Shown here piece by piece: positions 34,578 through 48,927 of a stretch of DNA of 64,000 nt. Positions within the stretch are counted from its first letter, which is position 1, and every line of letters starts with the position of its first letter. The notes beneath the pieces are model-generated. The model searched no databases. It saw nothing but the letters and a program-made list of their open reading frames with translations, and was not told the origin of the DNA. The DNA is from a virus: positions 64,001 through 128,000 of the IMG/VR virus record IMGVR_UViG_3300045988_177154. One strand, written 5' to 3'. Made by a program: the position numbers and the translations under genes.

Positions 34578-34650
34578 GCTGGAGTAGCTCAATTGGTAGA
34601 GCACCCGCCTTGTAAGCGGAAGGTTGCAGGTTCGAAGCCTGTCTCCAGCA
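34578..34650 (+). tRNA. tRNA-Thr (UGU)
   Basis: Acceptor GCTGGAG/CTCCAGC, loop CTTGTAA, T-loop TTCGAAG. Confidence 0.85.
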
Positions 34651-35040
34651 TACTCTATAATAGATGTAATTATAAGAGTTCCTGAAAAATCAATGACTCA
34701 TGTAGGTTGTCATGAATTTACATGAATAGATTTCAATGTTGGTTTATCTGTAATCCGAAGCATGAATAAAACAGATTGTGGTCTTTGCTTTACCATATTA
34801 TTGTAAAGGTCAAAGCTTATCAGAAGTAATTCTGTAAAAAGTTGTTTCGATTGGAATTAGTGACTCCAATCTTTATCCATGAAATAACAAAAAATCATAA
34901 CTATTAAAGTTATGTGGCAGTTACGTTAGAGTATTGCTTGAAGTGTTGAAAATTAGAAGTTAGTGCCGAATTTCTAATCGTACTTCATTGATAGGGTTTT
35001 CGGTGGACACCGCGGGGCATAAGAAAACCGGCCAGTGAAA
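34651..35040 (+). ncRNA. ORF-free structured spacer sharing a motif block with 34255-34330
   Basis: GCTTGAAGTGTTG..ATTAGAAGTTAGTGCCGAATTTCTAATCGTAC (34935-34990) resembles GCTTCAAAGTGTT..AGATTAGTGCAAGTCTAGGATTCTAATAC (34255-34315). Confidence 0.35.
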
Positions 35041-35125
35041 TAAATGGTGTAATTAAAGAAATTCTAAGATATGGCTTATAATTTCAAAAATTACTTAAAT
35101 TTTTTAAAAAATTTTAATTTTGATA

Positions 35126-35153
35126 TTGACAATAACTCAAATTTTGATATAAT
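35126..35153 (+). promoter_or_regulatory. internal promoter of the RNA island
   Basis: TTGACA 35126-35131, 16 nt, TGATATAAT ending at 35153; long A/T UP-like tract upstream. Confidence 0.6.
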
Positions 35154-35171
35154 AGATACATAAAAACTTAT

Positions 35172-35243
35172 AGGTTCTTAGTTTACCGAGAAAAATAAGG
35201 GTCTCCAAAACCTTAGAAATCAGTGCAAGTCTGATAGAGCCTG
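35172..35243 (+). tRNA. tRNA-Trp (CCA), non-canonical D and T loops
   Basis: Acceptor AGGTTCT/AGAGCCT, D stem GTTT/AAAT, anticodon stem-loop AGGGT-CTCCAAA-ACCTT, T arm ATCAG-TGCAAGT-CTGAT (the T-loop lacks the TTC consensus). Confidence 0.55.
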
Positions 35244-35287
35244 TTACAAATAAAAATTATTAAAAGAAAAAAGGAAGGTACGTAATC

Positions 35288-35410
35288 ATGACAACATTTA
35301 CAGTCGCACAAGATATTCATATGATTATTGATATGCAGCCGGCAGCCGGTACTGTAGTGCTTCGTCAAGCAAAAAATACCTTACAATCTAATAGTAGGAT
35401 TATAAGTTAG
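35288..35410 (+). CDS. possible 39-aa leader-type ORF
   Basis: AAGGAAGG RBS 8 nt upstream of the ATG. MTTFTVAQDIHMIIDMQPAAGTVVLRQAKNTLQSNSRIIS. Its 3' end overlaps the first copy of an 11-nt repeat that takes part in alternative hairpins. Confidence 0.3.
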   Translation: MTTFTVAQDIHMIIDMQPAAGTVVLRQAKNTLQSNSRIIS

Positions 35411-35439
35411 CATTCAGCTCAGCTTAATAAATCAAACTA

Positions 35440-35469
35440 AGATTGTAAGAAATTCCTTACAATCTTTTT
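35440..35469 (+). terminator. terminator hairpin with a competing upstream partner (attenuator-like)
   Basis: AGATTGTAAG (35440-35449) pairs with CTTACAATCT (within 35455-35465) followed by TTTTC. An identical CCTTACAATCT at 35379-35389 could pair with the same segment instead. Confidence 0.45.
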
Positions 35470-35479
35470 CTAGCTATAT

Positions 35480-35550
35480 GGGGCATTAGTTTAATGGGAA
35501 AACACTACCCTTGCAAGGTAACGTTAGGAGTTCGATTCTCCTATGCTCCA
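35480..35550 (+). tRNA. tRNA-Ala (UGC)
   Basis: Acceptor GGGGCAT/ATGCTCC with G3-U70, loop CTTGCAA, T arm AGGAG-TTCGATT-CTCCT. Confidence 0.8.
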
Positions 35551-35575
35551 TTTCCATTAAGGAAATCATCATTAA

Positions 35576-35646
35576 GTGGACATAGTATAAGGGTAGTATG
35601 ACGGGCTTCCAACCCGTTGGTGCGAGTTCGAATCTCGTTGTCCATA
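35576..35646 (+). tRNA. tRNA-Gly (UCC)
   Basis: Acceptor GTGGACA/TGTCCAT, anticodon stem-loop ACGGG-CTTCCAA-CCCGT, T-loop TTCGAAT. Confidence 0.8.
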
Positions 35647-35649
35647 TAA

Positions 35650-35720
35650 GGCGAGGTAGTGAAAAGGTATAACGTTGGGCTCATAACCCAAAATTGTCGG
35701 TTCGAATCCGACCTTCGCAA
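35650..35720 (+). tRNA. tRNA-Met (CAU), initiator-like features
   Basis: Loop CTCATAA. Three G-C pairs closing the anticodon stem (TTGGG/CCCAA). Position 1-72 unpaired (G x A). Poorly formed D stem. Confidence 0.7.
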
Positions 35721-35730
35721 TTTTAAATTA

Positions 35731-35804
35731 CTAGGTGTAGCGCAGTTTGGTAGCGCACGTGCTTTGGGAGCACGGGGCCGCAGGTTCGAATCCTGTCACC
35801 TAGA
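35731..35804 (+). tRNA. tRNA-Pro (UGG)
   Basis: Acceptor CTAGGTG/CACCTAG, anticodon stem-loop CGTGC-TTTGGGA-GCACG. Confidence 0.85.
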
Positions 35805-35845
35805 TAAAGCAATGATGAATTGCTTAAAGGAAAGGTTTTTATATT

Positions 35846-36025
35846 ATGACTAATTTGAAAAAATATATCTTATCTTTGATTATAGCATTTGTAATTACCA
35901 TTCCTATTGCAAGTGTTATTCTTACAATTATTTATGATACAGTAATCTTCTTGATTATCTCAACAATTATTTATTTTATTGTAATGACTTTAGTTATTAA
36001 AGGATTTAATTATGATAAAGATTAG
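35846..36025 (+). CDS. small membrane protein (59 aa, two hydrophobic segments) embedded in the tRNA array
   Basis: AAAGGAAAGG RBS. MTNLKKYILSLIIAFVITIPIASVILTIIYDTVIFLIISTIIYFIVMTLVIKGFNYDKD. The stop abuts tRNA-Ile. Confidence 0.5.
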   Translation: MTNLKKYILSLIIAFVITIPIASVILTIIYDTVIFLIISTIIYFIVMTLVIKGFNYDKD

Positions 36026-36096
36026 TGTCCGATGGTGAAATGGTATCACAAGCTGCTGATAACGGCTAGTTACAAGTTCAATTCTTGTTCGGACAA
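36026..36096 (+). tRNA. tRNA-Ile (GAU)
   Basis: Acceptor TGTCCGA/TCGGACA, anticodon stem-loop AGCTG-CTGATAA-CGGCT, T arm ACAAG-TTCAATT-CTTGT. Confidence 0.8.
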
Positions 36097-36107
36097 TACA
36101 ATATAAA

Positions 36108-36179
36108 TGCTTCTTAGTTTAATGGATATGACGCCGGACTACGAATCCGGAGATAAAGGTTCAATTCCTTTAGGAGCAA
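36108..36179 (+). tRNA. tRNA-Arg (ACG)
   Basis: Acceptor TGCTTCT/AGGAGCA, anticodon stem-loop CCGGA-CTACGAA-TCCGG. Confidence 0.8.
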
Positions 36180-36184
36180 TATAT

Positions 36185-36258
36185 TGGAGTATAGACAAAT
36201 TGGTAAAGTCACTGGACTTTGAATCCAGGTTTTGCTGGTTCGAATCCAGCTACTCCAG
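36185..36258 (+). tRNA. tRNA-Gln (UUG)
   Basis: Acceptor TGGAGTA/TACTCCA, anticodon stem-loop CTGGA-CTTTGAA-TCCAG. Confidence 0.85.
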
Positions 36259-36270
36259 TTAATAAAATAT

Positions 36271-36343
36271 GGCTTCGTAGCAAAGTGGTTATTGCGCTGG
36301 CTTGTCACGCCAGAGGTCGGGGGTTCGATTCCCCTCGGGGCCG
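36271..36343 (+). tRNA. tRNA-Asp (GUC)
   Basis: Acceptor GGCTTCG/CGGGGCC, anticodon stem-loop CTGGC-TTGTCAC-GCCAG. Confidence 0.85.
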
Positions 36344-36755
36344 TAACCCTGCCTAGGGGTAATACATAGTAGTAATACTATGAAAGGAAGTTTGACAAAC
36401 TTTCGCCTGTCTTATGATGGGTTAACTAGGCAATACATTTTCAAGTTGCTCAAAAGGCACATTATATAAGCATAATCAGTGAGAAACCTTGAGATAGTTT
36501 CAGGCATGGAATTGCTAACTTCTTGTGCTAGCTAATGGAAGTTAGATGTGCGAAATATAAGGAGAATGTAAGGATTAACAGTTAGAGTCTTAGCGGATAA
36601 TAGCGTAATCCATAACAATATTCATATGGTTGGCAAATCATTGTAAGTATTGTTGAATTTCAAAATCTTAGCGGATAGAGAAGTAATAAATTGGCGAGGA
36701 GCATTCCTTAGAACAAAATTTTATGGAACTCCGAGGCATAGCTCGTCAATGTCAA
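36344..36755 (+). ncRNA. ORF-free structured spacer (5' part of a possible ~836-nt RNA with a nested tRNA-like element)
   Basis: 412 nt with no ORF. Internal repeat ATCTTAGCGGATA at ~36585 and ~36665. Hairpins such as CTAACTTC...GAAGTTAG. Confidence 0.35.
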
Positions 36756-36829
36756 AGGTGATTAGCTCATTTGGTAGAGCATATATTTTGAGGAATATAG
36801 GGTAATGGGTTCGATTCCCATATTACTAA
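36756..36829 (+). tRNA. tRNA-like element with an 8-nt anticodon loop (identity undetermined)
   Basis: Canonical D arm GCTCATTTGGTAGAGC and T arm ATGGG-TTCGATT-CCCAT. Anticodon stem TATAT/ATATA encloses TTTGAGGA (8 nt). Acceptor AGGTGAT/ATTACTA is weak (1-72 mismatch, two G-U pairs). Confidence 0.5.
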
Positions 36830-37179
36830 CGAAGCGAAAGTCTATGTCAGACTTAGAAAAAAAGAGCATTAACTCCATACAGATTTATTCTGAATATGGA
36901 AACAATAGAAGCTCGCAAGCAACTATTGTTTTAATCCAATGATTTCCGCAAACTTGAGCCGTACAACTTAGGTCTAACGAAATCGGGTTGAGTATCGCTA
37001 AGTCTTAATGGTAAAAGTATCGCCAGCAGGTTTGTAACTGCGAAAGATGAATGCTTAAGAGATACGATTAGGAATAATCGTGGATAAACAACTAAACAAT
37101 AAGGTTGTTAAAGACTCTTATTTAACGCTATAATCTCAGGCCGTTAACTTCTTATAGGGGAAGAGAAATCCTATTTTAT
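36830..37179 (+). ncRNA. ORF-free structured spacer (3' part of the possible ~836-nt RNA)
   Basis: 350 nt with no ORF. GNRA-type hairpins (GCGAAAG, CTGCGAAAGATG) and several 6-9 bp complementary pairs. Confidence 0.35.
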
Positions 37180-37251
37180 GCTCTGTTAGCTCAGGGGGAG
37201 AGCACTAGTCTTACAAACTAGATGTCATTGGTTCAAATCCAATACAGAGCA
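37180..37251 (+). tRNA. tRNA-Val (UAC)
   Basis: Acceptor GCTCTGT/ACAGAGC, anticodon stem-loop CTAGT-CTTACAA-ACTAG. Confidence 0.85.
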
Positions 37252-37306
37252 TTTCCTACATAAAACGCAAAATCGTTTATTGTAGTGCTTACGATGTAAG
37301 CATCTA

Positions 37307-37389
37307 GCGCCCGTGGTGGAATGGCAGACACGCTAGGCTTAGACCCTAGTGTCCGAAAGGACGTGAGAGTTCGAGTCTCTCCGAGTGCA
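37307..37389 (+). tRNA. tRNA-Leu (UAG)
   Basis: Acceptor GCGCCCG/CGAGTGC (one C x A mismatch), anticodon stem-loop CTAGG-CTTAGAC-CCTAG, long variable arm. Confidence 0.75.
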
Positions 37390-37390
37390 T

Positions 37391-37464
37391 CTTGTCTTAG
37401 TGTTAATAGGTTAGCATATCTCACTGTGACTGAGAAGGTACGGGTTCGAGTCCCGTAGGCATGA
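37391..37464 (+). tRNA. tRNA-His (GUG)
   Basis: Acceptor CTTGTCT/AGGCATG (one U x U mismatch), anticodon stem-loop TCTCA-CTGTGAC-TGAGA, T arm ACGGG-TTCGAGT-CCCGT. No encoded G-1. Confidence 0.65.
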
Positions 37465-37515
37465 TTAGGAAAGGGAACAATAATTGTTCTCTTTATTTAT
37501 TTTTAGAGGTGTTTA

Positions 37516-37635
37516 ATGAATAAAGAACTTGATAGAATTGTTGCTAATTCACCTGATGGGTTAAAGAACAATCCAATCTTCAAAGAGTTAGTAAATGAAA
37601 TAACAAAAAATAAAGAAAAGGAGAATCAAAAGTGA
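37516..37635 (+). CDS. possible small protein (38 aa)
   Basis: AGAGG RBS. MNKELDRIVANSPDGLKNNPIFKELVNEITKNKEKENQK. The stop lies inside the following terminator. Confidence 0.35.
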   Translation: MNKELDRIVANSPDGLKNNPIFKELVNEITKNKEKENQK

Positions 37636-37647
37636 TTCTCTTTTTTT
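37621..37647 (+). terminator. rho-independent terminator ending the RNA island
   Basis: GAGAATC-AAAAGT-GATTCTC followed by TTTTTTT. Confidence 0.75.
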
Positions 37648-37651
37648 GCTA

Positions 37652-37680
37652 TTGACTAGTTATATTATTTGTTATATAAT
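37652..37680 (+). promoter_or_regulatory. sigma70-like promoter of the family B array
   Basis: TTGACT 37652-37657, 17 nt, TATAAT 37675-37680. Confidence 0.6.
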
Positions 37681-37714
37681 GGTAATAACATTTATTGAAA
37701 GGTAAAGTAATTAA

Positions 37715-38221
37715 ATGGAAAATTCAATCCTAGAAAAAGAAGATAAGTATATTAAAGATGGCTATAAACAAATCTATCCAAATGATAAAGATATTAAAGT
37801 TACTCTATTGAATGGGGTTTCAGATTGGATATGGATTTGTAGCTCTTTTCAAACCAGAAAATTATCATTAAGAGAAGCTTTCAAAAATAAGGGTAGCAAA
37901 TTTCTTGATGTTGAAGCTGATTATGAAGGCAATTCACATATTCAATTACGATTAACCAAAAACTCTCAAAAACAGATTTATAGTATTTCGGATATTTTTA
38001 TAACTAGTGATGATGAAAAGTTAATTCGCTTAACAGAAAAAACAGCTGAAGATTATGAGGGTTTTGTTCAAAAGATTGATAAAATATATTTCGATATAAA
38101 CGAAGGTCGATTACTTATTTTTCTTGATAAGAATTTTGTAAGTAAAAAAGGAGCGAAAGCTATTGCTAAGAAAGCAAAAGAAGATGAAGTCAAAAAATCA
38201 ATCTCTGAGTTATTTGAATAA
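37715..38221 (+). CDS. paralog family B protein (B1)
   Basis: 168 aa. DGYKQIYPN near the N-terminus, KIDKIYFDINEGRLLIFLDKNF, Lys-rich tail ending ELFE. Confidence 0.7.
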   Translation: MENSILEKEDKYIKDGYKQIYPNDKDIKVTLLNGVSDWIWICSSFQTRKLSLREAFKNKGSKFLDVEADYEGNSHIQLRLTKNSQKQIYSISDIFITSDDEKLIRLTEKTAEDYEGFVQKIDKIYFDINEGRLLIFLDKNFVSKKGAKAIAKKAKEDEVKKSISELFE

Positions 38222-38242
38222 AAATAGAAAGACAAATAAGAA

Positions 38243-38746
38243 ATGGAAAATGCAATACTTATAGAAGATAAACAAATAGAAAAGGGCTTTAAACAAATAT
38301 ACCCAAATAACAATGATGTGGAAATAAGTCTGAAATCGTGGCGTGATGGTTGGCCTTGGATTAGCAAAGGTTGGGAAACTAGAAGATTAACTATTTATGA
38401 AAACATTAAGGAATGGAATAAAAATTTTTTTAAAGTTGATGTTGATTATACAGATGATTACAGTGTCAAGTTGTATCTCACTAAATCTTTTCGAACTAAA
38501 ACTTATGGAGTAGATAAGATTTATATAAAAAATGGTGATGATGAGCCCCTGTGTTTAACTAAAGTAAATTCAAAAGATTACAAAATCATAGCAAAGAAAA
38601 TAGATAAAATATATTTCAATATAAATGAACATAGTTTACTTATTCTTACTGATAAGAATTTTATCAGCAAAAAAGAGAAAAAACTCTTAAAAGAAAAATC
38701 AATAACGGAAGCCGCTAACAATTCAATTGAAGAATTATTCAACTAA
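38243..38746 (+). CDS. paralog family B protein (B2)
   Basis: 167 aa. KGFKQIYPN, KIDKIYFNINEHSLLILTDKNF, tail ending ELFN. Confidence 0.7.
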   Translation: MENAILIEDKQIEKGFKQIYPNNNDVEISLKSWRDGWPWISKGWETRRLTIYENIKEWNKNFFKVDVDYTDDYSVKLYLTKSFRTKTYGVDKIYIKNGDDEPLCLTKVNSKDYKIIAKKIDKIYFNINEHSLLILTDKNFISKKEKKLLKEKSITEAANNSIEELFN

Positions 38747-38785
38747 AGAAAGCTTAAAACTTTCTTTTTTATTTTTATTTTGTTG

Positions 38786-38814
38786 TTGACAAAGGGTAAA
38801 ATCTATTGTATAAT
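38786..38814 (+). promoter_or_regulatory. sigma70-like promoter
   Basis: TTGACA 38786-38791, 17 nt, TATAAT 38809-38814. Confidence 0.6.
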
Positions 38815-38846
38815 AAATTTAGAAATTAAGGAAAAGGTGATAAACA

Positions 38847-39992
38847 ATGAAATTAACAATAAAAGAAACAAAGAAAGCAATCAAAAATAATCAAACTGTT
38901 AAATTTACTCTTGAGCTTAATAATGCAAGAGAACTTGCAACTAATAAGAAATATTACAAACGCTATGTAAAAGCAGTTGTGAAAAGAGTTAAATCTTTTT
39001 ATCCAACATTGGACTCATCTTATATTTTATCTGAATTAGAACGTTATGAAATCTTACCAAACGTTTCACGATTTGATGAAGAAGGTTACTTAATTCGCTA
39101 TGGTAAACAAAGATACGTTACAGCACAAACGTTTGAAGTGAATGATAATAAAATCTATTGGGTTGATTTTGATTACAATGCCAATTACTTCATCGTAGAC
39201 CAAGAATTAGGAATGAAATTAGATTCTGATGTTGCTGTATCTGATTCATTCTCAAATCACTTTGCAATATTAGTAAGCGACCCAAGCAGATTATTTCATG
39301 TTACAGATGAAGAATTACCATTATTCTTAAAATTATCAAAGACAGCACAAGGTTCTTTCAATATTGCAGTTGATGAAAATGTTTTTGCTGGAACAAAATC
39401 TAAACTTGTAAATCTTGATAAACAAAAAATTACTCGTAAAGCATATGAAGAAGAATTAAAAAATATTAGAACTAAAATTGTTGAAGTAAATAGAGTAATC
39501 TCCCCTATTTATGAAGAATTGACTACAAAATTCAATGATAAAGTAATCAAATCACAAAAAGTTGTTTCTAGTAAAATTGTTCGTGATTCATTCCGTGAAG
39601 TAAGTCAAAAATTCAATGAATTTATTGCTAAGAAATTAGGTTTACGTTGCGATTATAATTCTATTGCATTAAGTTCTGAAATTCGTTGGCCACAAGAAGG
39701 TGAATACGGTGGAGCATTATATCGTGAATATGATGGTACAATGTGTGTTCAACCAGATTTAGCAGACCGATACATTGAAAAGAATTACTCTAAAGAAATT
39801 AAAGCAATTAAAACTGAAATTGAAAAATTAAACAAGAAATTGGGCTCAAAATCACCAATTCAATTTGAAATTGGTTACGGTGTTTCTGTCGGTGATAAAA
39901 CTTCTAACATTTATGCAGCTATTTCATTAAAGAAATTGCCAGAAACAATTGTCGCTAAATACTTCAACAAAATGGAAAATCTATTTAAATAA
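38847..39992 (+). CDS. hypothetical protein (interrupts the family B array)
   Basis: 381-aa ORF, AAGGTGA RBS. Codon usage richer in GGT/CGT than its neighbours. Confidence 0.6.
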   Translation: MKLTIKETKKAIKNNQTVKFTLELNNARELATNKKYYKRYVKAVVKRVKSFYPTLDSSYILSELERYEILPNVSRFDEEGYLIRYGKQRYVTAQTFEVNDNKIYWVDFDYNANYFIVDQELGMKLDSDVAVSDSFSNHFAILVSDPSRLFHVTDEELPLFLKLSKTAQGSFNIAVDENVFAGTKSKLVNLDKQKITRKAYEEELKNIRTKIVEVNRVISPIYEELTTKFNDKVIKSQKVVSSKIVRDSFREVSQKFNEFIAKKLGLRCDYNSIALSSEIRWPQEGEYGGALYREYDGTMCVQPDLADRYIEKNYSKEIKAIKTEIEKLNKKLGSKSPIQFEIGYGVSVGDKTSNIYAAISLKKLPETIVAKYFNKMENLFK

Positions 39993-40002
39993 AATAAAGA
40001 TT

Positions 40003-40034
40003 AAGAAAGTCAATTTTTGACTTTCTTATTTTTG
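40003..40034 (+). terminator. rho-independent terminator
   Basis: AAGAAAGTC-loop-GACTTTCTT followed by ATTTTTG. Confidence 0.7.
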
Positions 40035-40093
40035 TTGATTTTTTGTGAATTTTATTATATAATATAACAAAACGATACTGAAAGGTTGAAACA

Positions 40094-40648
40094 ATGAACA
40101 CTATTGTAGAAAATAAAAGTAAATTAGATAAATTAGTACAAGATGGGTATAAAATTATTTATCCTAATTCTATTGATGGATTGGATTTTGAAGTTATTAC
40201 TGAAGAATGGTTTACAACAGCAGGTCTTATGGAAACTCATTATGTGATTGAAAAAAGTTTAAATTGTTCAGCATTAAGTTTATATGAAAAATTCTTCAAA
40301 TACAAAAATGATTTATTCCTTAATTTCAGCACTCTCATTACATCAAAATTTGGTGATTGTTCTGATAAGAAACATATATTAAGATTCGGAAAAAGTGATG
40401 CTAAAAAAGAGTTCAAAATACGAAAATTACTAATTGTTTCAGACAGTATGGAATTTAAACTTGGAGATTATCCAAAATTTCAAGAAAAGATTAACTTTAT
40501 TCTGTTCGACCCTAAAAATCTTTACTTAGTATTCTATATTGATGATAAATTCAAATCAAAGGAAGCTCAAAAAGAAGATTTAGAAAAGAATAAAAAACAA
40601 AATCTTGAAAATGAATTAGAAGAAGATTTGCAATCGCTATTTGATTAA
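40094..40648 (+). CDS. paralog family B protein (B3)
   Basis: 184 aa. MNTIVE..., DGYKIIYPN, KINFILFD...LVFYIDDKF, acidic/Lys-rich tail ending SLFD. Confidence 0.65.
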   Translation: MNTIVENKSKLDKLVQDGYKIIYPNSIDGLDFEVITEEWFTTAGLMETHYVIEKSLNCSALSLYEKFFKYKNDLFLNFSTLITSKFGDCSDKKHILRFGKSDAKKEFKIRKLLIVSDSMEFKLGDYPKFQEKINFILFDPKNLYLVFYIDDKFKSKEAQKEDLEKNKKQNLENELEEDLQSLFD

Positions 40649-40654
40649 CACTCC

Positions 40655-40745
40655 AGCTCTAAGCTGTTTTGTTAAATGAATGATAAATGCTATTAAAAAC
40701 GATGTGAACTGACTTAGAGTTGCTTAGACTGTAATGTAGTATCAC
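40655..40745 (+). repeat. R element copy 4 (degenerate, lacks the TCGATA core)
   Basis: GCTCTAAGCTGTTTTGTTAAATG...GACTTAGAGTTGCTTAGACTG retains the arm sequences of the R element only. Confidence 0.45.
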
Positions 40746-40771
40746 TTAAAATGAAAGGAACAAATAAAACT

Positions 40772-41278
40772 ATGAATCATATTGTAGAAGAAGAAAAGAA
40801 AGATATTTTAGCGCCTCATATTGAAGATGGATATAAAGTTATCTATCCTAATAAAAACGTAAAAATTGAATTAGTAAATATTTATAAAAAACGGGCTTCT
40901 CAGCATATTAAAATTGGGTTAATTTGTTCAGGCCTGAAGTTATGGGATAGACTTTCTACTTATAAAAAAGATTTATTCTTGAAGCCGGGTAACTTTGAAA
41001 AGGGGGAGAATAAATTAACAATTAGTAGAGATGGAGCAGAAGCTACATTTAATTTAGAAAGAAATATTTTTATTTATGATTTAAATAATAAATATTTTGG
41101 CTCAGAAGCAAAGTTCCCCGAAAAGATTGAATATATTTTACTTAAGCAAAATTTCAACACAACTCATTTGCGAATTATAATAGATGATAAGTTTAAAACA
41201 AAAGCTGCTCAAAAACATTACCGAATCCAAAATGAAAAGAGAAAACTTGAAGAAGAATTAGACTTGAACCTAAGTTAG
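40772..41278 (+). CDS. paralog family B protein (B4)
   Basis: Start moved to ATG 40772 to give the family N-terminus MNHIVEEE. DGYKVIYPN, KIEYILLK...LRIIIDDKF. Confidence 0.65.
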   Translation: MNHIVEEEKKDILAPHIEDGYKVIYPNKNVKIELVNIYKKRASQHIKIGLICSGLKLWDRLSTYKKDLFLKPGNFEKGENKLTISRDGAEATFNLERNIFIYDLNNKYFGSEAKFPEKIEYILLKQNFNTTHLRIIIDDKFKTKAAQKHYRIQNEKRKLEEELDLNLS

Positions 41279-41280
41279 TA

Positions 41281-41375
41281 TAAGCGTTTCTAAACTGTTT
41301 TTTCGTAAAGTCGATACATTTATCGAAAATCAGTTTTAACAGTTTTAGAATTGCTTATATGACGATATAATAACC
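41281..41375 (+). repeat. R element copy 5
   Basis: TAAGCGTTTCTAAACTGTTTTTTCGTAAAGTCGATACATTTATCGAAAATCAGTTTTAACAGTTTTAG...TATATGACGATATAATAAC. Confidence 0.8.
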
Positions 41376-41403
41376 CTTAAAATGAAAGTGAGTAATTGTA
41401 AAA

Positions 41404-41898
41404 ATGAATGAAATTGTTTCAGTGAAAGATGAAAATAATTTAGATGAAAATTATAAATTAGTTTATCCTAATAATAAAGGATTAGCAGTAAGACTGTATG
41501 AAAGCAACACATCTTTATTAACTCATTCATCTGACAGTTGTTTTTTGAGTTTTTTTGAAGTTTTGTTTAATATAAATGATTTGTTTATTGAAAAAACAAA
41601 GTATCAAAAAATCGTGTCTGAGTATAGGCCATGGTTTAGATTGGTATTTACATCTTTTAAAAATGACTCCTTTAAAGATGAGTACAATATTAAGAATGTA
41701 AAAGTTCTAAATGAACAACATAAATCAATAGAAATAAAATATCCCAAGAAAATTAAAGAGATTTATTTTAGTACAGAAAATAATACAGTTGCTATTGTTA
41801 TTGACTCTAATTTCTGTTCTAAGCATGAGAAAAAGCAGACAGCTGAATTGAAAGAAAAAGAAAATCTTTCAAATAGTGTTAAAGATTTATTGAATTAG
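41404..41898 (+). CDS. paralog family B protein (B5)
   Basis: 164 aa. MNEIVS, ENYKLVYPN, KIKEIYFSTENNTVAIVIDSNFC, ends DLLN. Confidence 0.7.
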   Translation: MNEIVSVKDENNLDENYKLVYPNNKGLAVRLYESNTSLLTHSSDSCFLSFFEVLFNINDLFIEKTKYQKIVSEYRPWFRLVFTSFKNDSFKDEYNIKNVKVLNEQHKSIEIKYPKKIKEIYFSTENNTVAIVIDSNFCSKHEKKQTAELKEKENLSNSVKDLLN

Positions 41899-41910
41899 AA
41901 AGGTACACAA

Positions 41911-42447
41911 ATGAATGAAATAGTTTCAATAAAAAATAAAAATTTTTTAGATGGGTATAAGCTCGTTTATCCCACCAACAACAAAGATTTAAAAGTTAAT
42001 ATTTTAGATGATAATGGTGATGGGCAACTTCATATCGGGATAAGTAATCTTGATTTAAACATGCTTGAAGAGGTGCTTTATTTCAACAAATTGTTTATTA
42101 GTAAATATAGCAAATTGATTTTGGAGAACCATATAGAAAATTTTAGCTCTGGAGTTACATTATTGTTTACTTCAAAAGAGGGTAAAGAAATAAAAGGCTT
42201 TGCAATAAAATCTTTGAAAATAACAGATTCTCACGGGGAGAAAGTTGATTTTACTCATCTTGAGTTAATTAAAGAAATTTATTTTAATGCAGATACTGGA
42301 GCTGTTATTATTGTTACAGATGAAAAATTCTGCTCTGCTAAAGAGAAGAAATACATCAAAGAGCAGAAAGTAAAAAATCATGAAAAAGCAATAAAAGAAC
42401 AGAAAGAGAAAGCATTATTAAATAGTGTTGAAAATTTATTGAATTAG
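41911..42447 (+). CDS. paralog family B protein (B6)
   Basis: 178 aa. MNEIVS, DGYKLVYPT, LIKEIYFNADTGAVIIVTDEKFC, ends NLLN. Confidence 0.7.
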   Translation: MNEIVSIKNKNFLDGYKLVYPTNNKDLKVNILDDNGDGQLHIGISNLDLNMLEEVLYFNKLFISKYSKLILENHIENFSSGVTLLFTSKEGKEIKGFAIKSLKITDSHGEKVDFTHLELIKEIYFNADTGAVIIVTDEKFCSAKEKKYIKEQKVKNHEKAIKEQKEKALLNSVENLLN

Positions 42448-42459
42448 AAAGGCTCAAAA

Positions 42460-42987
42460 ATGAATGAAATTGTTTCAACAAATAATGAATTACAAGATTA
42501 TAAGTTAATTTATCCTAATGATAAAAAGTTAAGAGTTAATCTTTCAGATGGATTAACAAGTGCTAGTCTTAAATTTGGAAGTGAAACTGATAAACTGAAC
42601 TTTTTTGAAAGATTTCTTAACTTTAACAATTTGTTCATTTCTAAATATGATTATCAAGCTTTTATGAAAGCTCCTGAGTTTAATACTAGGGCTTTGTCTT
42701 TGCGTTTCCTTTCAAATGAGGGCGAACTTGTGAGAATTTTCAGATTATCTCATATAAAAATAGTAAATTCTCAATATGAAGAAGTGCCAATTTCTCATAT
42801 TAAACAAATAAAAGAAATTTACTTTAGTGATGAGCTTGGCTCTGTTATTATTGTTATAGATGAAAATTTCTGCTCAATGCGTGAGAGAAAAGATTTAAGA
42901 GATGAAATGAAAGCAAAAAATGAATTACTTGCCAAAGAGACTAGACAAGAAACTCTATTAAAAGAAGTAAATGATTTGTTGAATTAG
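42460..42987 (+). CDS. paralog family B protein (B7)
   Basis: 175 aa. MNEIVS, QDYKLIYPN, QIKEIYFSDELGSVIIVIDENFC, ends DLLN. Confidence 0.7.
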   Translation: MNEIVSTNNELQDYKLIYPNDKKLRVNLSDGLTSASLKFGSETDKLNFFERFLNFNNLFISKYDYQAFMKAPEFNTRALSLRFLSNEGELVRIFRLSHIKIVNSQYEEVPISHIKQIKEIYFSDELGSVIIVIDENFCSMRERKDLRDEMKAKNELLAKETRQETLLKEVNDLLN

Positions 42988-43003
42988 AAAGGATTGAATC
43001 AAG

Positions 43004-43510
43004 ATGAATGAACTTGTTTCAAATGACTATAAAGAGGATTTGCTCAAAGACAATTACAAACTGATTTATCCAAATGATTTGGGCTTGATTGTAACTATGA
43101 ACAAAGGTGATACTAAAATTATTTTCAAAAGAGGATTTGACAAAAAGTTAGGACTGTTGGGCGCGTTTGAAAATAGTAATAAACTATTTGTTTCTTACCA
43201 CATTTTTGATACAGCTAGACGATTAAACTCAAATTCTCATGAAAAATTAACATTAGAGTTTAAAGAGCTTAACAAATCAGAAATTAAAGAAATTCCTATT
43301 GTAAATATTAAAATTCTTGATGAACAAGGTGAGGAGTATTTAAATAACACATGGAGTAGACGAATTAAGAAAATCTATTTGAATACTGAAAAAGCTGCTC
43401 TTATAATTGTAATTGATGAAAGTTTTCAATTCCCAGAGCAATTAAAAGAACTTAAATTAAAGCAAAAAGCAGAAAAATTAGAGAATAAAATCAACTCATT
43501 GTTAAAATAA
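43004..43510 (+). CDS. paralog family B protein (B8)
   Basis: 168 aa. MNELVS, DNYKLIYPN, RIKKIYLNTEKAALIIVIDESF, ends SLLK. Confidence 0.7.
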   Translation: MNELVSNDYKEDLLKDNYKLIYPNDLGLIVTMNKGDTKIIFKRGFDKKLGLLGAFENSNKLFVSYHIFDTARRLNSNSHEKLTLEFKELNKSEIKEIPIVNIKILDEQGEEYLNNTWSRRIKKIYLNTEKAALIIVIDESFQFPEQLKELKLKQKAEKLENKINSLLK

Positions 43511-43524
43511 AAGGAGAGAACTAT

Positions 43525-43827
43525 ATGCTATTCAAATTGAAAGATACAGAAGTAAATGAAATTACACCAATTTATAAAGATGAACACTATGAAGAAGGCT
43601 GGTGTGAAACTTGTGGTGGCGAATGGGTAGATGCTGAAATTGAAATCGAAATTGTTTTTGGTGATTCAACTTCATATATTTATAGAAACAATAACAATGC
43701 TGAAATTAAATCAATTACTACAGTTATTAACTATCTATTTACACATTTAAACGAATTTCCTAACATGACGAAAGATGAGTTTATTAGCCATCTTAAGCAC
43801 CAGCTTGATGAAGATTTCAAAGATTAG
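43525..43827 (+). CDS. hypothetical protein with CETCGG motif
   Basis: 100-aa ORF, AAGGAGAG RBS; sits between B8 and B9. Confidence 0.55.
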   Translation: MLFKLKDTEVNEITPIYKDEHYEEGWCETCGGEWVDAEIEIEIVFGDSTSYIYRNNNNAEIKSITTVINYLFTHLNEFPNMTKDEFISHLKHQLDEDFKD

Positions 43828-43839
43828 AAAGAGTAAAAA

Positions 43840-44331
43840 ATGAATAACATTACTCAAAATTTCAAAGAAAATTTATTAGCTAATAACTATAAATTGATTT
43901 ATCCTAACTCTAAAAAAATAGAGATTAGGATATTTGCTAAAAAACTCTTTAGCTTAACCAAAAAAGCACAAGATATAGAACAATTGACTCCAATTCAAAA
44001 AATTCTTTATTGGGGCCAATTGTTTTTGAATGAAGAAAGATACAAATTCATAAGAGAATTAAAGAAAGATGAGCTTTTGATTAAATTTTTTAATAAAACT
44101 GGTATTGAAGAAAAATTTATCTTTTCAACTGTTAAGATTTATGATGAAAATGGCTCTCCATATTACTCATTATATCCTAAGAAAATTAAAGAAATTTATT
44201 TGAATTTTAGCTCAAAAAGTGTTATAATTGTCATAGATGAAAGATTCAAGACTAAAAAAGAAAAAGCTTGGATTAAAAAAGAAAAAAAGAAAGGAAACTT
44301 TACAAAGAATTTAGAATCTTTGATAAGTTAA
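43840..44331 (+). CDS. paralog family B protein (B9)
   Basis: 163 aa. NNYKLIYPN, KIKEIYLNFSSKSVIIVIDERF, Lys-rich tail ending SLIS. Confidence 0.7.
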   Translation: MNNITQNFKENLLANNYKLIYPNSKKIEIRIFAKKLFSLTKKAQDIEQLTPIQKILYWGQLFLNEERYKFIRELKKDELLIKFFNKTGIEEKFIFSTVKIYDENGSPYYSLYPKKIKEIYLNFSSKSVIIVIDERFKTKKEKAWIKKEKKKGNFTKNLESLIS

Positions 44332-44352
44332 ACAGTGAAAGGAATGCCTCTA

Positions 44353-45081
44353 ATGAAACTAGATAATAACATTTATGATAACAATTCAGTATTTGATACG
44401 AATGAAAAAGAAATCTTTAATGGTAATTTTAAGGAACTTAAAGAGTTCATGTCAAATACTTTCAATTTTAAATTGACTGATAATGAAAATATGGAAGTTT
44501 ATGAGGATTTTAATGGTCGTGACTTTAAAATTCAAATGGGAATCCACATTGACCCAGAATTTCTAAAACAATTAGAAGCAACGGCTAGTGCAGAAGCAAA
44601 ACTTGAAGAAATCTATAACAAAGTTTTTGGCAAATTCTCAATTAAAGAAATGTTAGAAATGATTAAATCTAAAAAAATTCTAAATTTCATGGAACAATTT
44701 ATGAATGAAGTACCACTTGGTTTTGACAATCCTTATGAAGCAAATTACTTTATCTTTGAAACTGTAGAAGATTTTATTGAAGCAATGATTGCTCAACTTT
44801 ACTACAAATACAAAGAATCTGGTATTATGATTTCATTTTGTCCTAATACTAACATTACTACTGATGAATTTATGTTCACAACTGAATTATTTGCTACTCA
44901 AGAAAATGGTGAATATTATATTTTTGAACGAATTAGTGGCCAAGGCGAAACATTCTATCATATTTACAATATTAAAGATGGTAAATTATCAGCTAATGTT
45001 TGGAGAGAAACTATTGAATATAGCAGAGCTCTAAACGCATTGAATGAAGTATATAAGGAGAGAATCAATGAAGCAAATTAA
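44353..45081 (+). CDS. hypothetical protein
   Basis: ORF-track ORF 44335-45081. I prefer ATG 44353 (AAAGGA 10 nt upstream) over the GTG at 44335. Confidence 0.5.
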   Translation: MKLDNNIYDNNSVFDTNEKEIFNGNFKELKEFMSNTFNFKLTDNENMEVYEDFNGRDFKIQMGIHIDPEFLKQLEATASAEAKLEEIYNKVFGKFSIKEMLEMIKSKKILNFMEQFMNEVPLGFDNPYEANYFIFETVEDFIEAMIAQLYYKYKESGIMISFCPNTNITTDEFMFTTELFATQENGEYYIFERISGQGETFYHIYNIKDGKLSANVWRETIEYSRALNALNEVYKERINEAN

Positions 45082-45631
45082 AAGTTATGTTTTTGAAGCT
45101 GGAGATACTCTCTATTATGTAGATAAAGAAGGTGAAGTTTATTCTTTTGAAGTAACAGAAGATTTACTTAAACCTCAATCTGAAATGCCCACTTCATTCC
45201 TTGATAATTATGTTCTCAAACCATATACTCCAGTAACTGTTTATGACGATTTTGGACGATTGTGGTTATGGTCAGCTAAGGGGCAATGGACTGGTGCTGG
45301 TATGGCTTCAAGTTTTAATGTGGAATATTCAAGTAAAGTTGCTGATGTTTTTATTACTGAAGAGGAAGCATTTGAATTTAGTAAAGCTCGTAAGAAGCAC
45401 AATGAAGAAAATGAATTTTTTGATTCTTATGCAACAATTCATATTAAGCATGCAGTATCAAATAGAGTGTTAGAATCATTAGCATTTACAAAATATTCAT
45501 TAGTTGAGCTCATTAAATTAGTTAATATTTATAGAACAGAAAATACTCCAATTAAAATTTCTGTTTTGGATTATGAGGGGAATGAGTTCGCTTATTCTCA
45601 AATCGAAAAAGAACTAGAAAGATTTTATTAG
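45068..45631 (+). CDS. hypothetical protein
   Basis: Start moved to ATG 45068 (AAGGAGAG RBS); 187 aa. Confidence 0.55.
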   Translation: MKQIKSYVFEAGDTLYYVDKEGEVYSFEVTEDLLKPQSEMPTSFLDNYVLKPYTPVTVYDDFGRLWLWSAKGQWTGAGMASSFNVEYSSKVADVFITEEEAFEFSKARKKHNEENEFFDSYATIHIKHAVSNRVLESLAFTKYSLVELIKLVNIYRTENTPIKISVLDYEGNEFAYSQIEKELERFY

Positions 45632-45632
45632 A

Positions 45633-46382
45633 ATGAATTATTTAAGTATATGTCAAGAATTAGACAAAGTGAAGAATAGCATCAAGTATCATGAAAGAGA
45701 AATTGAAAAAGATAAATCTAAAGTTGAACAACTAGAAGAATACAAGAAGTTGCTTGAAAATGGTGCTAAACCAGTTTATGTTGAAGCTAAAGAGTTTGTT
45801 AAACCTGTAAATCCTATATTTATTCTCCTTAAAAGCAAATTGTACTTTGAAGAATTAAAGAACGTTTTGTTGTACGATTACAAATCATTAGAGAAAAATC
45901 CAGTAACACTTATCCAAGATGAATGGCATGCTTTCAAGCTTAAGTGGCATTCAACATATACTCGCTCTGATGAAAGTAAAGTTACTTTTCATAAGGATTT
46001 GACAGAGGATTATTACTCAGAATTACTTTTGGAACTAAATAAAATAGATGATTTAAATATTGAAAGAACAGCACAAAGTCTTTCTATAATTCAAAACGGT
46101 CAATTTCCAACTCGTAAACATTCTGGTCAATTTGATTATGGAGTATTAAAGGATATTGTTAGTTTTAAAGTGGAAAAATTTGAAAAAGTTTTACAACTAC
46201 TTAACTTCCCAAAAGAAATAGAAATTTCTCTAGGACGAGTGCTGTATGTTCTTAATGAAGATACTAAGGAATATGAATTACAATTTTTAAACTTGAAAGA
46301 TGAGTTGCCAATAAAGGGGGATTTATGTGGTGATAACAACATTAAAAAACAATGGCCAAATAAAATTTTTACTGAAGATTGA
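45633..46382 (+). CDS. paralog family C protein (C1)
   Basis: 249 aa. N-terminal coiled-coil then LLNFPKEIEISLGRVLYVLNED, paralleling 46867-47622. Confidence 0.6.
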   Translation: MNYLSICQELDKVKNSIKYHEREIEKDKSKVEQLEEYKKLLENGAKPVYVEAKEFVKPVNPIFILLKSKLYFEELKNVLLYDYKSLEKNPVTLIQDEWHAFKLKWHSTYTRSDESKVTFHKDLTEDYYSELLLELNKIDDLNIERTAQSLSIIQNGQFPTRKHSGQFDYGVLKDIVSFKVEKFEKVLQLLNFPKEIEISLGRVLYVLNEDTKEYELQFLNLKDELPIKGDLCGDNNIKKQWPNKIFTED

Positions 46383-46788
46383 TGAAGAAAATGACTTGCT
46401 TACAAATAGTTGGGTTGATGAAAGTTTTGAATATCTAGCTAGGGCCGCAAACAAAAAAGATACAGATAGAGATTTAATCTTAACTATCCGAAAAGGATTA
46501 GGACAATTAGAGTACAATATTAAAAAATTAACTTATGAATATAAGGGTCAAGGCAAAAATATTAAAGTTAAGGAATTAGAATTAAGTGATAACTCTAATA
46601 GCGAAACTGAATTAAAAGTCATTTTTGAAAGAAGCTTCGCTATACAAGAAAAGATTTATAACTATCTAAAAGCTCAAATAAACCATGCTCTAAAATCCTA
46701 TAAAGATAAGAGAGCAGAGCTAAAACGTTTTAATCAGCAAGAACTTGAAAATTTAATTAAAAATAACACAAAAGAAAAGAAAGATTAG
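46327..46788 (+). CDS. hypothetical protein
   Basis: 153 aa, GTG start after AAGGGGG; overlaps C1 by 56 nt. The start is uncertain. Confidence 0.45.
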   Translation: MVITTLKNNGQIKFLLKIDEENDLLTNSWVDESFEYLARAANKKDTDRDLILTIRKGLGQLEYNIKKLTYEYKGQGKNIKVKELELSDNSNSETELKVIFERSFAIQEKIYNYLKAQINHALKSYKDKRAELKRFNQQELENLIKNNTKEKKD

Positions 46789-46808
46789 TTAAAATCTTTC
46801 TTTTTTAT

Positions 46809-46837
46809 TTGACACTTTAATACTTTTATAATACAAT
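46809..46837 (+). promoter_or_regulatory. sigma70-like promoter
   Basis: TTGACA 46809-46814, 17 nt, TACAAT 46832-46837. Confidence 0.5.
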
Positions 46838-46866
46838 AGAAATATAAAGAAAAGAGGGATAAAACA

Positions 46867-47622
46867 ATGAAAAACTATATGGATATTGTAAATTTAGAAA
46901 ATGAGTTGCTTAATAAAAAAGCTAAACTACAAGAAGAATATGAAAAAGAAATGAATGCTATCAATAAAAGATTAGCTGAATATGAAGATTATAAAAATGA
47001 TTTCAAGAATGGAAATGCTGAATTAGTTTTAGCTAAGGAATATGTTGAGCAATATAGACGATTTAACATTTTACTTTACTTTGCTCTTTATATGAATGAC
47101 TTGAAGAAAGTGCTAAAAGAAGATTGGAAAGTACTTCTTGAAAAGAATTTACAATTGCAAGATAATGCTTATGGTGGAGATTGGACTAAATATACTCTAC
47201 TTGTTCAAAAAGGTTATGGAACAAATTATCACCCTAATTTAGGTTCAATTGAATTTTCAAAAAATACACCGTCTGAATATTTTGATACTCTTTATATGGA
47301 GCTAGAAGATAAAGTGATTAAAAATTTAGAAACTGTTAAAGGTAGTGAATATAATTACGCCAATCGGTTCCCTAACAATGACCCGTTCACTTATTTCAAA
47401 TGGTTAGATTATAAATTTGCTTTTAAACTTAAAACAGATGATTATGACTATACTAAATTATTTAAATTGCTTAACTTTCCAGAGCAAATTGTTATCCAAA
47501 ATGATGGACGTAAAGCTATGTATAAGCTAATTGATGATGTTTACGCTTTCCACACTTGGAATTGTGCTACTGAAGAATGGGTAAATGAATATGAAGAATA
47601 TTTGAAAATGAAAGGTAAATAA
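46867..47622 (+). CDS. paralog family C protein (C2)
   Basis: 251 aa. Coiled-coil N-terminus and LLNFPEQIVIQNDGRKAMYKLIDD. Confidence 0.6.
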   Translation: MKNYMDIVNLENELLNKKAKLQEEYEKEMNAINKRLAEYEDYKNDFKNGNAELVLAKEYVEQYRRFNILLYFALYMNDLKKVLKEDWKVLLEKNLQLQDNAYGGDWTKYTLLVQKGYGTNYHPNLGSIEFSKNTPSEYFDTLYMELEDKVIKNLETVKGSEYNYANRFPNNDPFTYFKWLDYKFAFKLKTDDYDYTKLFKLLNFPEQIVIQNDGRKAMYKLIDDVYAFHTWNCATEEWVNEYEEYLKMKGK

Positions 47623-47623
47623 A

Positions 47624-47950
47624 ATGATTGAATCATACTTAACAAAAGATGAACAAAATGAGCTAAGACTTGAAGAAATTCCAATTTTAGACAGACCTGA
47701 AACTATAAAATTTGAATTTACTAAAGATAGTACAATCTTTTTACCAGATGAAACAGAATTAAAGATTGAAAAAGTTAATGGTAAATATAAGCCAATTGAT
47801 TTTGATTGGTACTTATCACCAGAAGAAATTACTAATAAAAATATTATGGAACCAAAATATGGTGGAACTTGGATTGATAACAAATTTATTGAAAATAAAG
47901 AATATAAATACTTTATTACTGAACTTGCAGCTCTAGTTGATAGTCTATAA
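47624..47950 (+). CDS. hypothetical protein
   Basis: 108-aa ORF. The antisense 199-aa ORF 47527-48126 is rejected. Confidence 0.55.
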   Translation: MIESYLTKDEQNELRLEEIPILDRPETIKFEFTKDSTIFLPDETELKIEKVNGKYKPIDFDWYLSPEEITNKNIMEPKYGGTWIDNKFIENKEYKYFITELAALVDSL

Positions 47951-47967
47951 AGAAAGAGAAGTGGAAT

Positions 47968-48909: not shown

Positions 48910-48927
48910 AATAGGAGATTATAGAAT

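Follow-up and report, generated by a model that had tools for sequence, protein, structure and literature searches.

Nine diverged tandem paralogs of an orphan protein family in a jumbo phage from human metagenomes

The window analysed here is a 64,000-nucleotide (nt) stretch of viral DNA (positions 64,001 to 128,000 of IMG/VR record IMGVR_UViG_3300045988_177154), and its interval 37715-44331 carries, on the + strand, nine open reading frames (ORFs) of 163-184 amino acids (aa) that form one protein family, named family B (B1-B9). The copies are 22-41% identical to B1, and a MAFFT alignment of the nine has 12 invariant columns (N3, K18, Y21, P22, N23, L50, F63, L78, I121, I124, D138 and F141). 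In an all-against-all BLASTP comparison B1-B9 form a single connected component at E<1e-4, which is joined by no other ORF of the 64 kb. The family hidden Markov model (HMM) matches each copy end to end with E values of 2e-36 to 1e-61, far beyond chance, and found no tenth copy in the window. A preliminary description of this DNA had reported nine tandem paralogs in 6.6 kb, which the alignment, the BLASTP component and the HMM confirm. The motifs it listed are all present as well, namely M-N/E-x-I, (D/N)-G-Y-K-x-I-Y-P-N, I-K-x-I-Y-F/L, V-I-I-V-I-D-E-x-F and a terminal L-L/F-x. Family B is a protein family without a known relative or matching solved fold in the libraries searched, and its locus evolves by duplication, in-frame deletion between paralogs and slot replacement with deeply diverged alleles.

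All genes and signals of the array lie on the + strand. B1 (168 aa, 37715-38221, HMM E 2e-49) is followed by B2 (167 aa, 38243-38746), whose nearest paralog is B1 (41% identity). B3 (184 aa, 40094-40648), B5 (164 aa, 41404-41898), B6 (178 aa, 41911-42447), B7 (175 aa, 42460-42987) and B8 (168 aa, 43004-43510) are likewise placed in the family by alignment and HMM. The longest ORF for B4 begins at 40751 (175 aa); however, a start at 40772 is more likely since the public gene call P0059 begins with the methionine of MNHIVEEE and agrees with B4 in all 168 aa (100% identity), which places B4 at 40772-41278. B9 (163 aa, 43840-44331) is the most conserved and the most basic copy, with an isoelectric point (pI) of 9.75. 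The spacers from B5 through B6, B7, B8 and a 100-aa ORF to B9 are 12, 12, 16, 14 and 12 nt, so the close packing of B5-B8 noted earlier (12-16 nt) follows from the coordinates.

Two ORFs interrupt the array, and both had been called unrelated to family B before; neither has significant homology to it by hhalign. The 381-aa ORF (38847-39992), embedded between B2 and B3 and ending in ...MENLFK, belongs to a separate, clade-restricted family. It has look-alike motifs (KSFYP, FNIAVDENVF and the C-terminal ENLFK), of which only the likeness of the C-terminal tip was upheld, and its status as a diverged tenth B member is unsupported (hhalign E 0.69 with the single sequence, 0.25 profile to profile). 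Its AlphaFold model was too poor for a fold search (predicted local distance difference test score, pLDDT, 44.6). The 100-aa ORF (43525-43827), which contains WCETCGGEW, precedes B9 in full arrays and is 79-100% conserved; it was rejected as a B remnant (hhalign E 0.12).

The best Pfam-A match of the B proteins (E 0.012) was seen in two of the nine copies and lies below the cut-off. NCBIfam gave three single-copy matches (E 0.0024-0.0062) far under their cut-offs, and PADLOC gave no match. No PHROG match was reproducible among the paralogs; the matches were to single copies at E 0.0013-0.09, including B5 against the unannotated phrog_14524 (E 0.0032). A profile search of PDB sequences reached a best E of 0.63, and a Foldseek search of the PDB with the B9 model described below returned 0 matches at E<=0.001 (best E 0.59, template modelling score, TM, 0.22/0.28). 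HMMER with a 22-sequence profile found only 67 proteins at E<=0.001 among 1.84 billion cluster representatives; many are fragments and all are of the same family, and 220 hits carry no Pfam domain. Near-identical DNA among 50,697 GenBank phage records was limited to a tRNA, and Rfam detected no structured RNA in the array apart from tRNA. A dark stretch of roughly 10 kb (~37.5-47.9 kb) has no credible Pfam or PHROG match. The earlier remark that no described family has the YKLIYPN signature agrees with the outcome in Pfam, PHROG, NCBIfam, PADLOC and the PDB.

Two of the single-copy matches point to virion structural or connector-related proteins. Residues 19-100 of B4 match the head-tail adaptor phrog_132 (E 0.0013, 19.6 bits), which no other copy does, and B9 alone matches a portal PHROG (E 0.016). 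However, each match is weak, involves one of nine copies and covers a stretch that is poorly conserved. The PDB gave no sequence match to the family profile and no fold match, adaptor structures included, to the confident model; the promoters are of early type and the context is non-structural. A robust match to a structural family, which the preliminary description had named as counting against its interpretation, was thus not found, and it is very improbable that the B proteins are parts of the virion.

The structure of B9 was modelled with AlphaFold2 from a 22-sequence alignment (pLDDT 83.9, predicted template modelling score 0.79), with low confidence at residues 1-5 and 156-163. The model starts with a short helix, a strand (YKLI) with a turn (YPN), a second strand, and two short helices with a short strand; it continues with three strands, a conserved beta-hairpin (KKIKEIYLNF / SVIIVI) and two helices in the Lys/Glu-rich tail. 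The fold is predicted to be compact, mixed alpha/beta and without a detectable relative. The only strong matches to the model in BFVD are three ctHip2 proteins of 164, 167 and 175 aa (E 3.5e-15 to 3.8e-11, TM 0.62-0.82), which are the lengths of B5, B2 and B7. Since the independently predicted BFVD models of the paralogs superpose on the B9 model, the paralogs are predicted to share this fold, which is unmatched in the libraries searched. BFVD entry A0A8S5RWY7 (152 aa, Siphoviridae sp. ctHip2) resembles the B9 model weakly in fold (E 2e-4, TM 0.47-0.50, 12% identity) and may be a distant structural relation encoded at another place in the genome. Its candidate counterpart in the window, the 152-aa ORF at 46330-46788, has no profile similarity (hhalign E 0.61).

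A conservation profile was built from 44 family B representatives, each below 80% identity. In the middle (B9 residues 31-110) the most frequent residue of a column has a mean frequency of 0.20-0.41, versus 0.51-0.56 at the ends. The middle keeps the near-invariant hydrophobic anchors L49, L61 and F62 (82-98% conserved), and its mean pLDDT in the B9 model is 78-94 per 10-residue block. It had been described as almost unalignable between copies; it is far more variable than the ends, but it can still be aligned on these anchors and is confidently modelled. The other residues that are near-invariant across the family are N2, I4, K18, Y21, P22, N23, I116, I119, D133 and F136. Judging from the order of secondary-structure elements, the N-terminal strand-turn and the C-terminal hairpin probably pack as a frame around the variable middle, which fits the viability of a B1/B9 hybrid whose halves are joined at residue 101 (described below).

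Four of the conserved residues are polar (K18, Y21, N23 and D133) and are kept at 93-98% in the 44 representatives. This would be expected of an enzyme or a small-molecule binder, for example an immune-signal sponge, in which the variable middle is a tolerated surface, and small phage sponge proteins exist. However, no enzyme or sponge was matched by sequence or fold in the libraries searched, nine diverged copies are hard to reconcile with a single ligand, and the location of these residues in the strand-turn and at the hairpin end agrees with a structural role. Such an activity is therefore distinctly improbable.

Outside the confidently modelled core, the N-terminal M-N-x-I is nearly invariant. 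At the other end, eight of the nine copies finish in a tip of the form hydrophobic-x-x-L-[LFI]-x(1,2)-end after a Lys/Glu-rich helix of variable length. The tip motif also occurs in the embedded 381-aa ORF and in none of the 61 other ORFs of the window. It may be speculated that M-N-x-I and the C-terminal tip are docking peptides. The B proteins are hydrophilic, with a grand average of hydropathy (GRAVY) of -0.38 to -0.73. Their pI spans 5.4-9.75 and four of the nine are basic; a DNA-mimic anti-restriction protein of the Ocr/ArdA type was rejected because the copies are not uniformly acidic.

The array directly follows an island of 22 tRNA genes (30478-37465, ARAGORN), which is closed by a terminator-like hairpin (37470-37494) after tRNA-His (37390-37465). 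A 39-aa ORF without a PHROG match (37516-37635) comes next; its 3' end overlaps a second hairpin (37621-37640) with a T-run to 37647. A promoter-like TTGACT-17-TATAAT of host type (sigma-70/sigma-A consensus; 37652-37680) for B1-B2 is then followed by a ribosome-binding site and the ATG at 37715. The array had been said to have its own promoter directly after the RNA island, and this arrangement, with the two hairpins and the small ORF in between, upholds the claim; the position of the promoter is conserved in relatives. A gene of 38-40 aa was called at the same place in L001, L002, L011-L015, L035-L037, L040-L045 and L047 (metagenomic loci of relatives, treated below), and it precedes the array in most relatives whose upstream flank was recovered.

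Further signals were assigned from the sequence along the array. The 381-aa ORF has a perfect consensus match (TTGACA-17-TATAAT, 38786-38814) in front of it and a terminator-like hairpin behind it (40002-40028), and B3 has a promoter-like TTGATT-17-TATAAT (40035-40063) that lies at -59 in every relative checked. The intergenic region before B4 (40649-40771) contains a terminator-like hairpin (40654-40666) and a degenerate copy of a repeat, R. A full 126-nt R repeat lies before B5 (41276-41401), with the palindromes TCGATACATTTATCGA and CAGTTTTAACTG and a promoter-like TTTAGA-16-TATAAT. Of the two R copies reported earlier in the array, therefore, one stands and the other is degenerate. R copies at 4408-4533, 18774-18899, 27156-27281 and 41276-41401 are 67-81% identical, each lies upstream of a + strand gene, and R has no Rfam match in the stretch scanned. 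R is likely a regulated promoter or operator, and the copy at 41276-41401 would serve a B5-B9 operon. The array combines this promoter type with the consensus type, and would comprise at least four transcription units: B1-B2; the 381-aa ORF; B3; and (B4) B5-B8 with the 100-aa ORF and B9. The slot-1 promoter stays at -58 to -63 in 11 relatives although the coding sequence behind it is only 44-57% identical, and the distance of the B3 promoter from the start codon is likewise kept across the 11. Across the window the exact TTGAC-N18-TATAAT occurs 15 times (sites 4565 to 62882), all on the + strand, versus 0.11 expected (~136-fold); the sites in front of B1 and of the 381-aa ORF are two of the 15. 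Many of these copies extend to GTTGACAAA with an upstream T-run. Since consensus promoters and a GreA gene encoded by the phage near the array imply use of the host RNA polymerase, the array would be transcribed early by that enzyme.

The timing of expression bears on whether the B proteins might be internal head proteins that are packaged and ejected, like T4 IPI-III or phiKZ gp92-97. The N-terminus would then direct the proteins to the capsid or serve as a protease signal, and the variable body would act against host nucleases upon entry. In favour of this, M-N-x-I hardly varies despite being modelled as disordered, and the IP loci of T4 are hypervariable and close to tRNA genes. Some of the paralogous head proteins of phiKZ are injected (PMC12676376). 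However, the promoters are of the early host type, no structural gene was recognised in the 64-kb window, and no B protein has a Pfam match to phiKZ PF12699 at E<=1. No acidic cleavage motif common to the family follows the N-terminus, as Glu3 occurs only in B5-B8; this applies the hydrophobic-x-Glu criterion of T4, which may differ from that of the protease of this phage. The residues just after the N-terminus are also an integral strand of the predicted fold. A role as internal head proteins is thus quite unlikely.

About 40 loci were gathered by exact-protein look-up and a pattern scan, and their family members were counted with the HMM. There are nine copies in the window and in L001, with B1 and B2 both present, eight in L002 and seven in L035-L037. 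Six copies are found in L016-L018, L040-L045 and L047, in the order slot 1, 381-aa ORF, B3-type, B4-type, B7-type, B8-type, 100-aa ORF and B9. L011 has a single B1/B9 hybrid gene, and L012-L015 have one fused gene of 283 aa (B2-type residues 1 to ~115 plus B9), which occurs on six contigs from several samples. The distant relative L021 has six dispersed copies in three mini-clusters, in which one copy abuts tRNA-Leu and three follow GreA. L010 is without B7, B8 of L007 is split into two frames by an apparent frameshift and the first copy of L037 is truncated, which makes one frameshifted and one truncated copy in ~40 arrays. B9, or at least its C-terminal part, is present in every array of close relatives seen. 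Slot 1 is filled by a B1-type (90-94%), a B2-type (57-59%) or a third type (44-53%) gene. Uniform conservation among relatives, which the preliminary description had named as a finding against its interpretation, is not what these loci have: copy numbers are 9, 8, 7, 6 and 1, and the sequences are strongly diversified.

The hybrid gene of L011 is B1 up to nt 306 and is 100% identical to the B9-type sequence of L012 from there on. Both parents share the 11-nt ATGATGAAAAG exactly at the junction. The sequence indicates that in L011 the whole array was deleted in frame through this 11-nt microhomology, which lies at equivalent positions of the two paralogs. A chimeric protein was also seen outside the window: the first ~98 residues of metagenomic protein P0160 (197 aa) are a B8-like N-terminal half and the remainder resembles a Ser/Thr-kinase C-lobe (DIYSLSALLYFMITKKKP), which reflects a rearrangement or else an error of assembly.

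A set of diverged tandem paralogs whose alleles are replaced and whose copy number varies would also be expected of weapons or shields between phages or mobile elements, acting in superinfection exclusion or toxin immunity like the immunity-protein arrays of polymorphic toxin systems. The same cohorts hold several related strains side by side, and Firmicutes have tandem immunity-gene arrays whose proteins are of similar size. However, the B proteins match neither SUKH/Imm nor any other Pfam immunity family, and no toxin gene was recognised nearby, so this role is highly unlikely.

The sequence divergence is concentrated in particular slots, in which alleles are 40-60% identical and flanking genes 80-100%. 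Between L002 and the window, the synonymous divergence (dS) of the genes from B8 rightwards is 0-0.02, that of B7, B6 and the 381-aa ORF is 0.05, 0.19 and 0.04, and B1-B5 have a dS of 0.7-1.6 at 40-64% identity. Between L016-L018 and the window, the nonsynonymous divergence (dN) is 0.03-0.16 for the better conserved flanking genes (0.03-0.13 for GreA, LytR, a 320-aa ORF and a 248-aa ORF) and 0.27-0.58 for most B1-B8 slots, with a higher dS; some flanking genes are equally diverged. The gene-wide dN/dS (omega) is 0.07-0.64 throughout, which is purifying on average. In comparisons among paralogs, dS has reached saturation in the middle, whereas the ends have values of 0.3-2.5 or are saturated too; the paralogs are old. 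Recent gene conversion was rejected as the source of the conserved ends because their dS is not near zero, and the ends are thus held by selection on the protein. The junctions B5|B6 and B6|B7 share 70 nt at 87% identity, which suggests some local homogenisation around B5, B6 and B7. The locus is a long-maintained, diversified set with slot-wise allele replacement and copy gain and loss, and not obviously one with a positively selected hypervariable core.

The contigs with family B are ~260-350 kb long and come from human, largely oral, metagenomes, IMG/VR records among them; every contig examined belongs to one phage clade. L001, a 324,989-bp metagenomic contig, has 100% protein identity in every window gene it covers (35846-54351), and the phage that carries the array is a jumbo phage of about 325 kb. 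B9 is identical to P0002, which UniRef names from Siphoviridae sp. ctHip2, and a single B9 protein cluster is indexed in 164 blocks of the metagenomic collection. Circular jumbo phages of >300 kb have been described from the human tongue dorsum (preprint 10.1101/2020.07.06.186817), and we infer that the family B phages belong to that set. The G+C content of the window is 26-36%. Assemblies of Granulicatella, Streptococcus and Carnobacterium contain genes with 46-53% identity to the GbpC/LPXTG surface protein that a distant relative encodes, and some of these may be mis-binned phage contigs; because of this resemblance the host is probably a Gram-positive member of the Lactobacillales. The neighbourhood of the array has genes of counter-defence type, namely the 22 tRNAs, two RNA ligases, NADAR, PARG/macro, an HD-domain protein and a DNA methylase.

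The favoured reading, to which a probability of roughly 40% is given, is that family B is an early repertoire of cytoplasmic binders with one conserved scaffold, which would neutralise variable proteins of the host or of competing elements, or divert them; most plausibly these are defence components. The proteins would be soluble and cytoplasmic, as their GRAVY suggests, and would be made early by the host RNA polymerase. The strand-turn (G-Y-K-L-I-Y-P-N) and the hairpin (K-I-K-E-I-Y ... V-I-I-V-I-D-E-x-F) would form a frame that holds the variable middle subdomain, and M-N-x-I and the C-terminal hydrophobic-x-x-L-[LF]-x tip would be common handles. Each copy would be directed at its own variant of a protein from the host or a competing element, binding that protein and neutralising or diverting it; the target would most plausibly be a component of anti-phage defence. 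More copies would then allow more host strains to be handled, a narrow niche would permit collapse to one hybrid gene, and copy number and allele content would track the host strains met. The spread of pI among the copies, counted as surface diversification, supports this reading, as do the plasticity of the locus, the rarity of broken copies, the counter-defence genes nearby and the amplification of anti-defence loci known from other phages.

Several observations weigh against it. The function is deduced only from evolutionary behaviour, promoter type and neighbourhood, and the promoters were assigned by their match to a consensus. Gene-wide positive selection was not detected (omega <1 everywhere). 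A hypervariable core had been proposed earlier, but a check of per-site diversity among orthologues does not bear it out: entropy is roughly even along the protein for 100 B9 and 13 B1 orthologues, and the variation is not concentrated in the middle. High divergence is a property of the wider region, because several unrelated neighbours (45633-46382, 46867-47622, 50648-51055 and 52117-53103) differ just as much from relative to relative. The good conservation of B9 (71-100%) would agree with housekeeping by this copy at least. Lastly, K18, Y21, N23 and D133 could form a shared ligand or catalytic site instead of a structural clasp.

Some of these points would agree with sub-functionalised modulators of one phage or host machine, such as transcription, replication, the cell envelope or tRNA metabolism. 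No arms race would be involved; the shared frame and termini would plug into the same complex and copy number would drift through partial redundancy. Every copy is under purifying selection, B9 is conserved and always present, and M-N-x-I and the C-terminal tip are kept family-wide, with the tip shared by the co-located 381-aa ORF. The array also adjoins the tRNA island, and copies of L021 lie by tRNA-Leu (one) and after GreA (three). However, replacement of slots by 40-60% identical alleles between near-identical flanks is not expected of redundant housekeeping copies, nor is collapse to a single hybrid gene in apparently viable phages from several samples. Service to a single machine is therefore judged unlikely.

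The binder repertoire can be extended to a bolder proposal, which is doubtful as a whole. Family B would be a previously unseen natural binder scaffold in which a clasp of N- and C-terminal parts with docking tips presents a freely diverging subdomain. In a prevalent clade of human oral jumbo phages, a shuffled repertoire of 1-9 copies would neutralise polymorphic host immune effectors and be kept by slot-wise exchange and microhomology contraction, as a new anti-defence superfamily organised like the multigene families of large eukaryotic viruses.

Family B is a well-defined handle on phage dark matter, with a confidently predicted and unmatched fold, natural arrays of 9, 8, 7, 6 and 1 copies, in-frame hybrids and slot-wise replacement, and the jumbo phages that carry it are met repeatedly across many human metagenomes. 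Should the copies turn out to be counter-defence binders, new inhibitors of Gram-positive defence systems could be drawn from them in quantity, and they would exemplify in phages the kind of diverged multigene family found in poxviruses and giant viruses. Otherwise, the array is still the mark of an early module that is conserved and regulated in a phage clade not yet cultured.

Other features of the window were recorded as well. A second tandem family, family A (4669-5622 and 11772-18781), consists of seven paralogs, 317-345 aa long, that share a conserved C-terminus of YKYIE type; Pfam gave no match for the copy tested, and family A was rejected as a relative of family B (hhalign E 0.4). Just 3' of the array, 45633-46382 and 46867-47622 encode a paralog pair of ~250 aa that is among the most diverged genes between relatives (27-60% identity). 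The tRNA at 36756-36830 has a four-base anticodon (tgag), and its amino acid could not be assigned by ARAGORN. The intervals 262-1278, 28503-30083 and 53173-54841 encode an Rnl2-like RNA ligase with a PHA02142 OB domain, HD-domain and PARG/macro proteins, a T4 Rnl1-type RNA ligase and NADAR. Envelope-related genes at 49554-50645, 51140-52102, 55049-58497 and 60987-61748 comprise LytR-CpsA-Psr, VgrG3-like_C/GA-module, PASTA and sortase genes and a phage-encoded 744-aa class-A penicillin-binding protein (transglycosylase plus transpeptidase). A 498-aa TnpB/Cas12f-like ORF on the - strand (7171-8667) is bracketed by a 188-nt direct repeat (6959-7146 and 8794-8981; 78% identity), and a second OrfB_IS605/TnpB-like ORF lies at 59623-60840; TnpB insertion sites differ among relatives. 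A 104-nt intergenic direct repeat (49413-49516 and 54833-54936; 82% identity) follows GreA and NADAR. Five iteron-like repeat copies, four of them at 21-nt spacing (TTTTACCGGT...GAGTATTTT), are located in the intergenic region 25783-25980 before the gene at 26104.

Phages are known to amplify anti-defence loci under selection. Examples are tifA in T4 (PMC9391042) and, in T6, the SegB-driven amplification of a tRNA-Tyr segment, which lies in the tRNA region, and of other anti-defence genes (PMC13096335). Like this T-even accordion, the B array gains and contracts tandem copies of an accessory locus in a large lytic phage, its copy number differs between close genomes and, as in one T-even case, it lies by tRNA genes. 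However, the T-even amplifications are recent, near-identical repeats of known anti-defence genes, whereas the B copies are ancient (saturated dS, 22-41% identity) and each is under purifying selection. B1-B9 are therefore rejected as a recent accordion amplification, for which near-identical repeats would be expected, although copy gain and loss is ongoing. No homing endonuclease was recognised next to the array.

The internal proteins IPI, IPII and IPIII of T4 are small and fast-evolving, with a conserved N-terminal tag and variable bodies, and are encoded at a polymorphic locus near tRNA genes; IPI* of T4 is an anti-restriction factor. Family B resembles them in N-terminal conservation, variable bodies and a polymorphic locus near tRNAs, without homology. 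The B genes differ in having host-type early promoters and a conserved N-terminal region that runs on into the folded core. The phiKZ head and inner-body family (gp92-97, 153, 162 and 163; PF12699) is also paralogous, and its copies are individually dispensable (PMC12676376). Both families are multi-copy in a jumbo phage, but the B proteins are much smaller and are encoded in a non-structural region.

Polymorphic toxin systems (SUKH/Imm) have soluble immunity proteins of ~150-180 aa whose genes form tandem arrays of diverged copies; the proteins keep one fold, vary at the surface and are thought to provide a specificity repertoire. The tandem array is common to both, but family B has no SUKH/Imm sequence or fold similarity and no adjacent toxin, and the immunity arrays lie on bacterial chromosomes whereas the B array belongs to a lytic-type jumbo phage. 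Family B is new, but it is found in a known kind of setting, the hyperplastic early accessory part of a large phage genome. The B locus is a fast-turnover accessory locus, most plausibly directed against variable host factors such as defences. What is unusual in it is that nine ancient copies, each under constraint of its own, go together with slot-wise exchange of alleles and a clean in-frame collapse.

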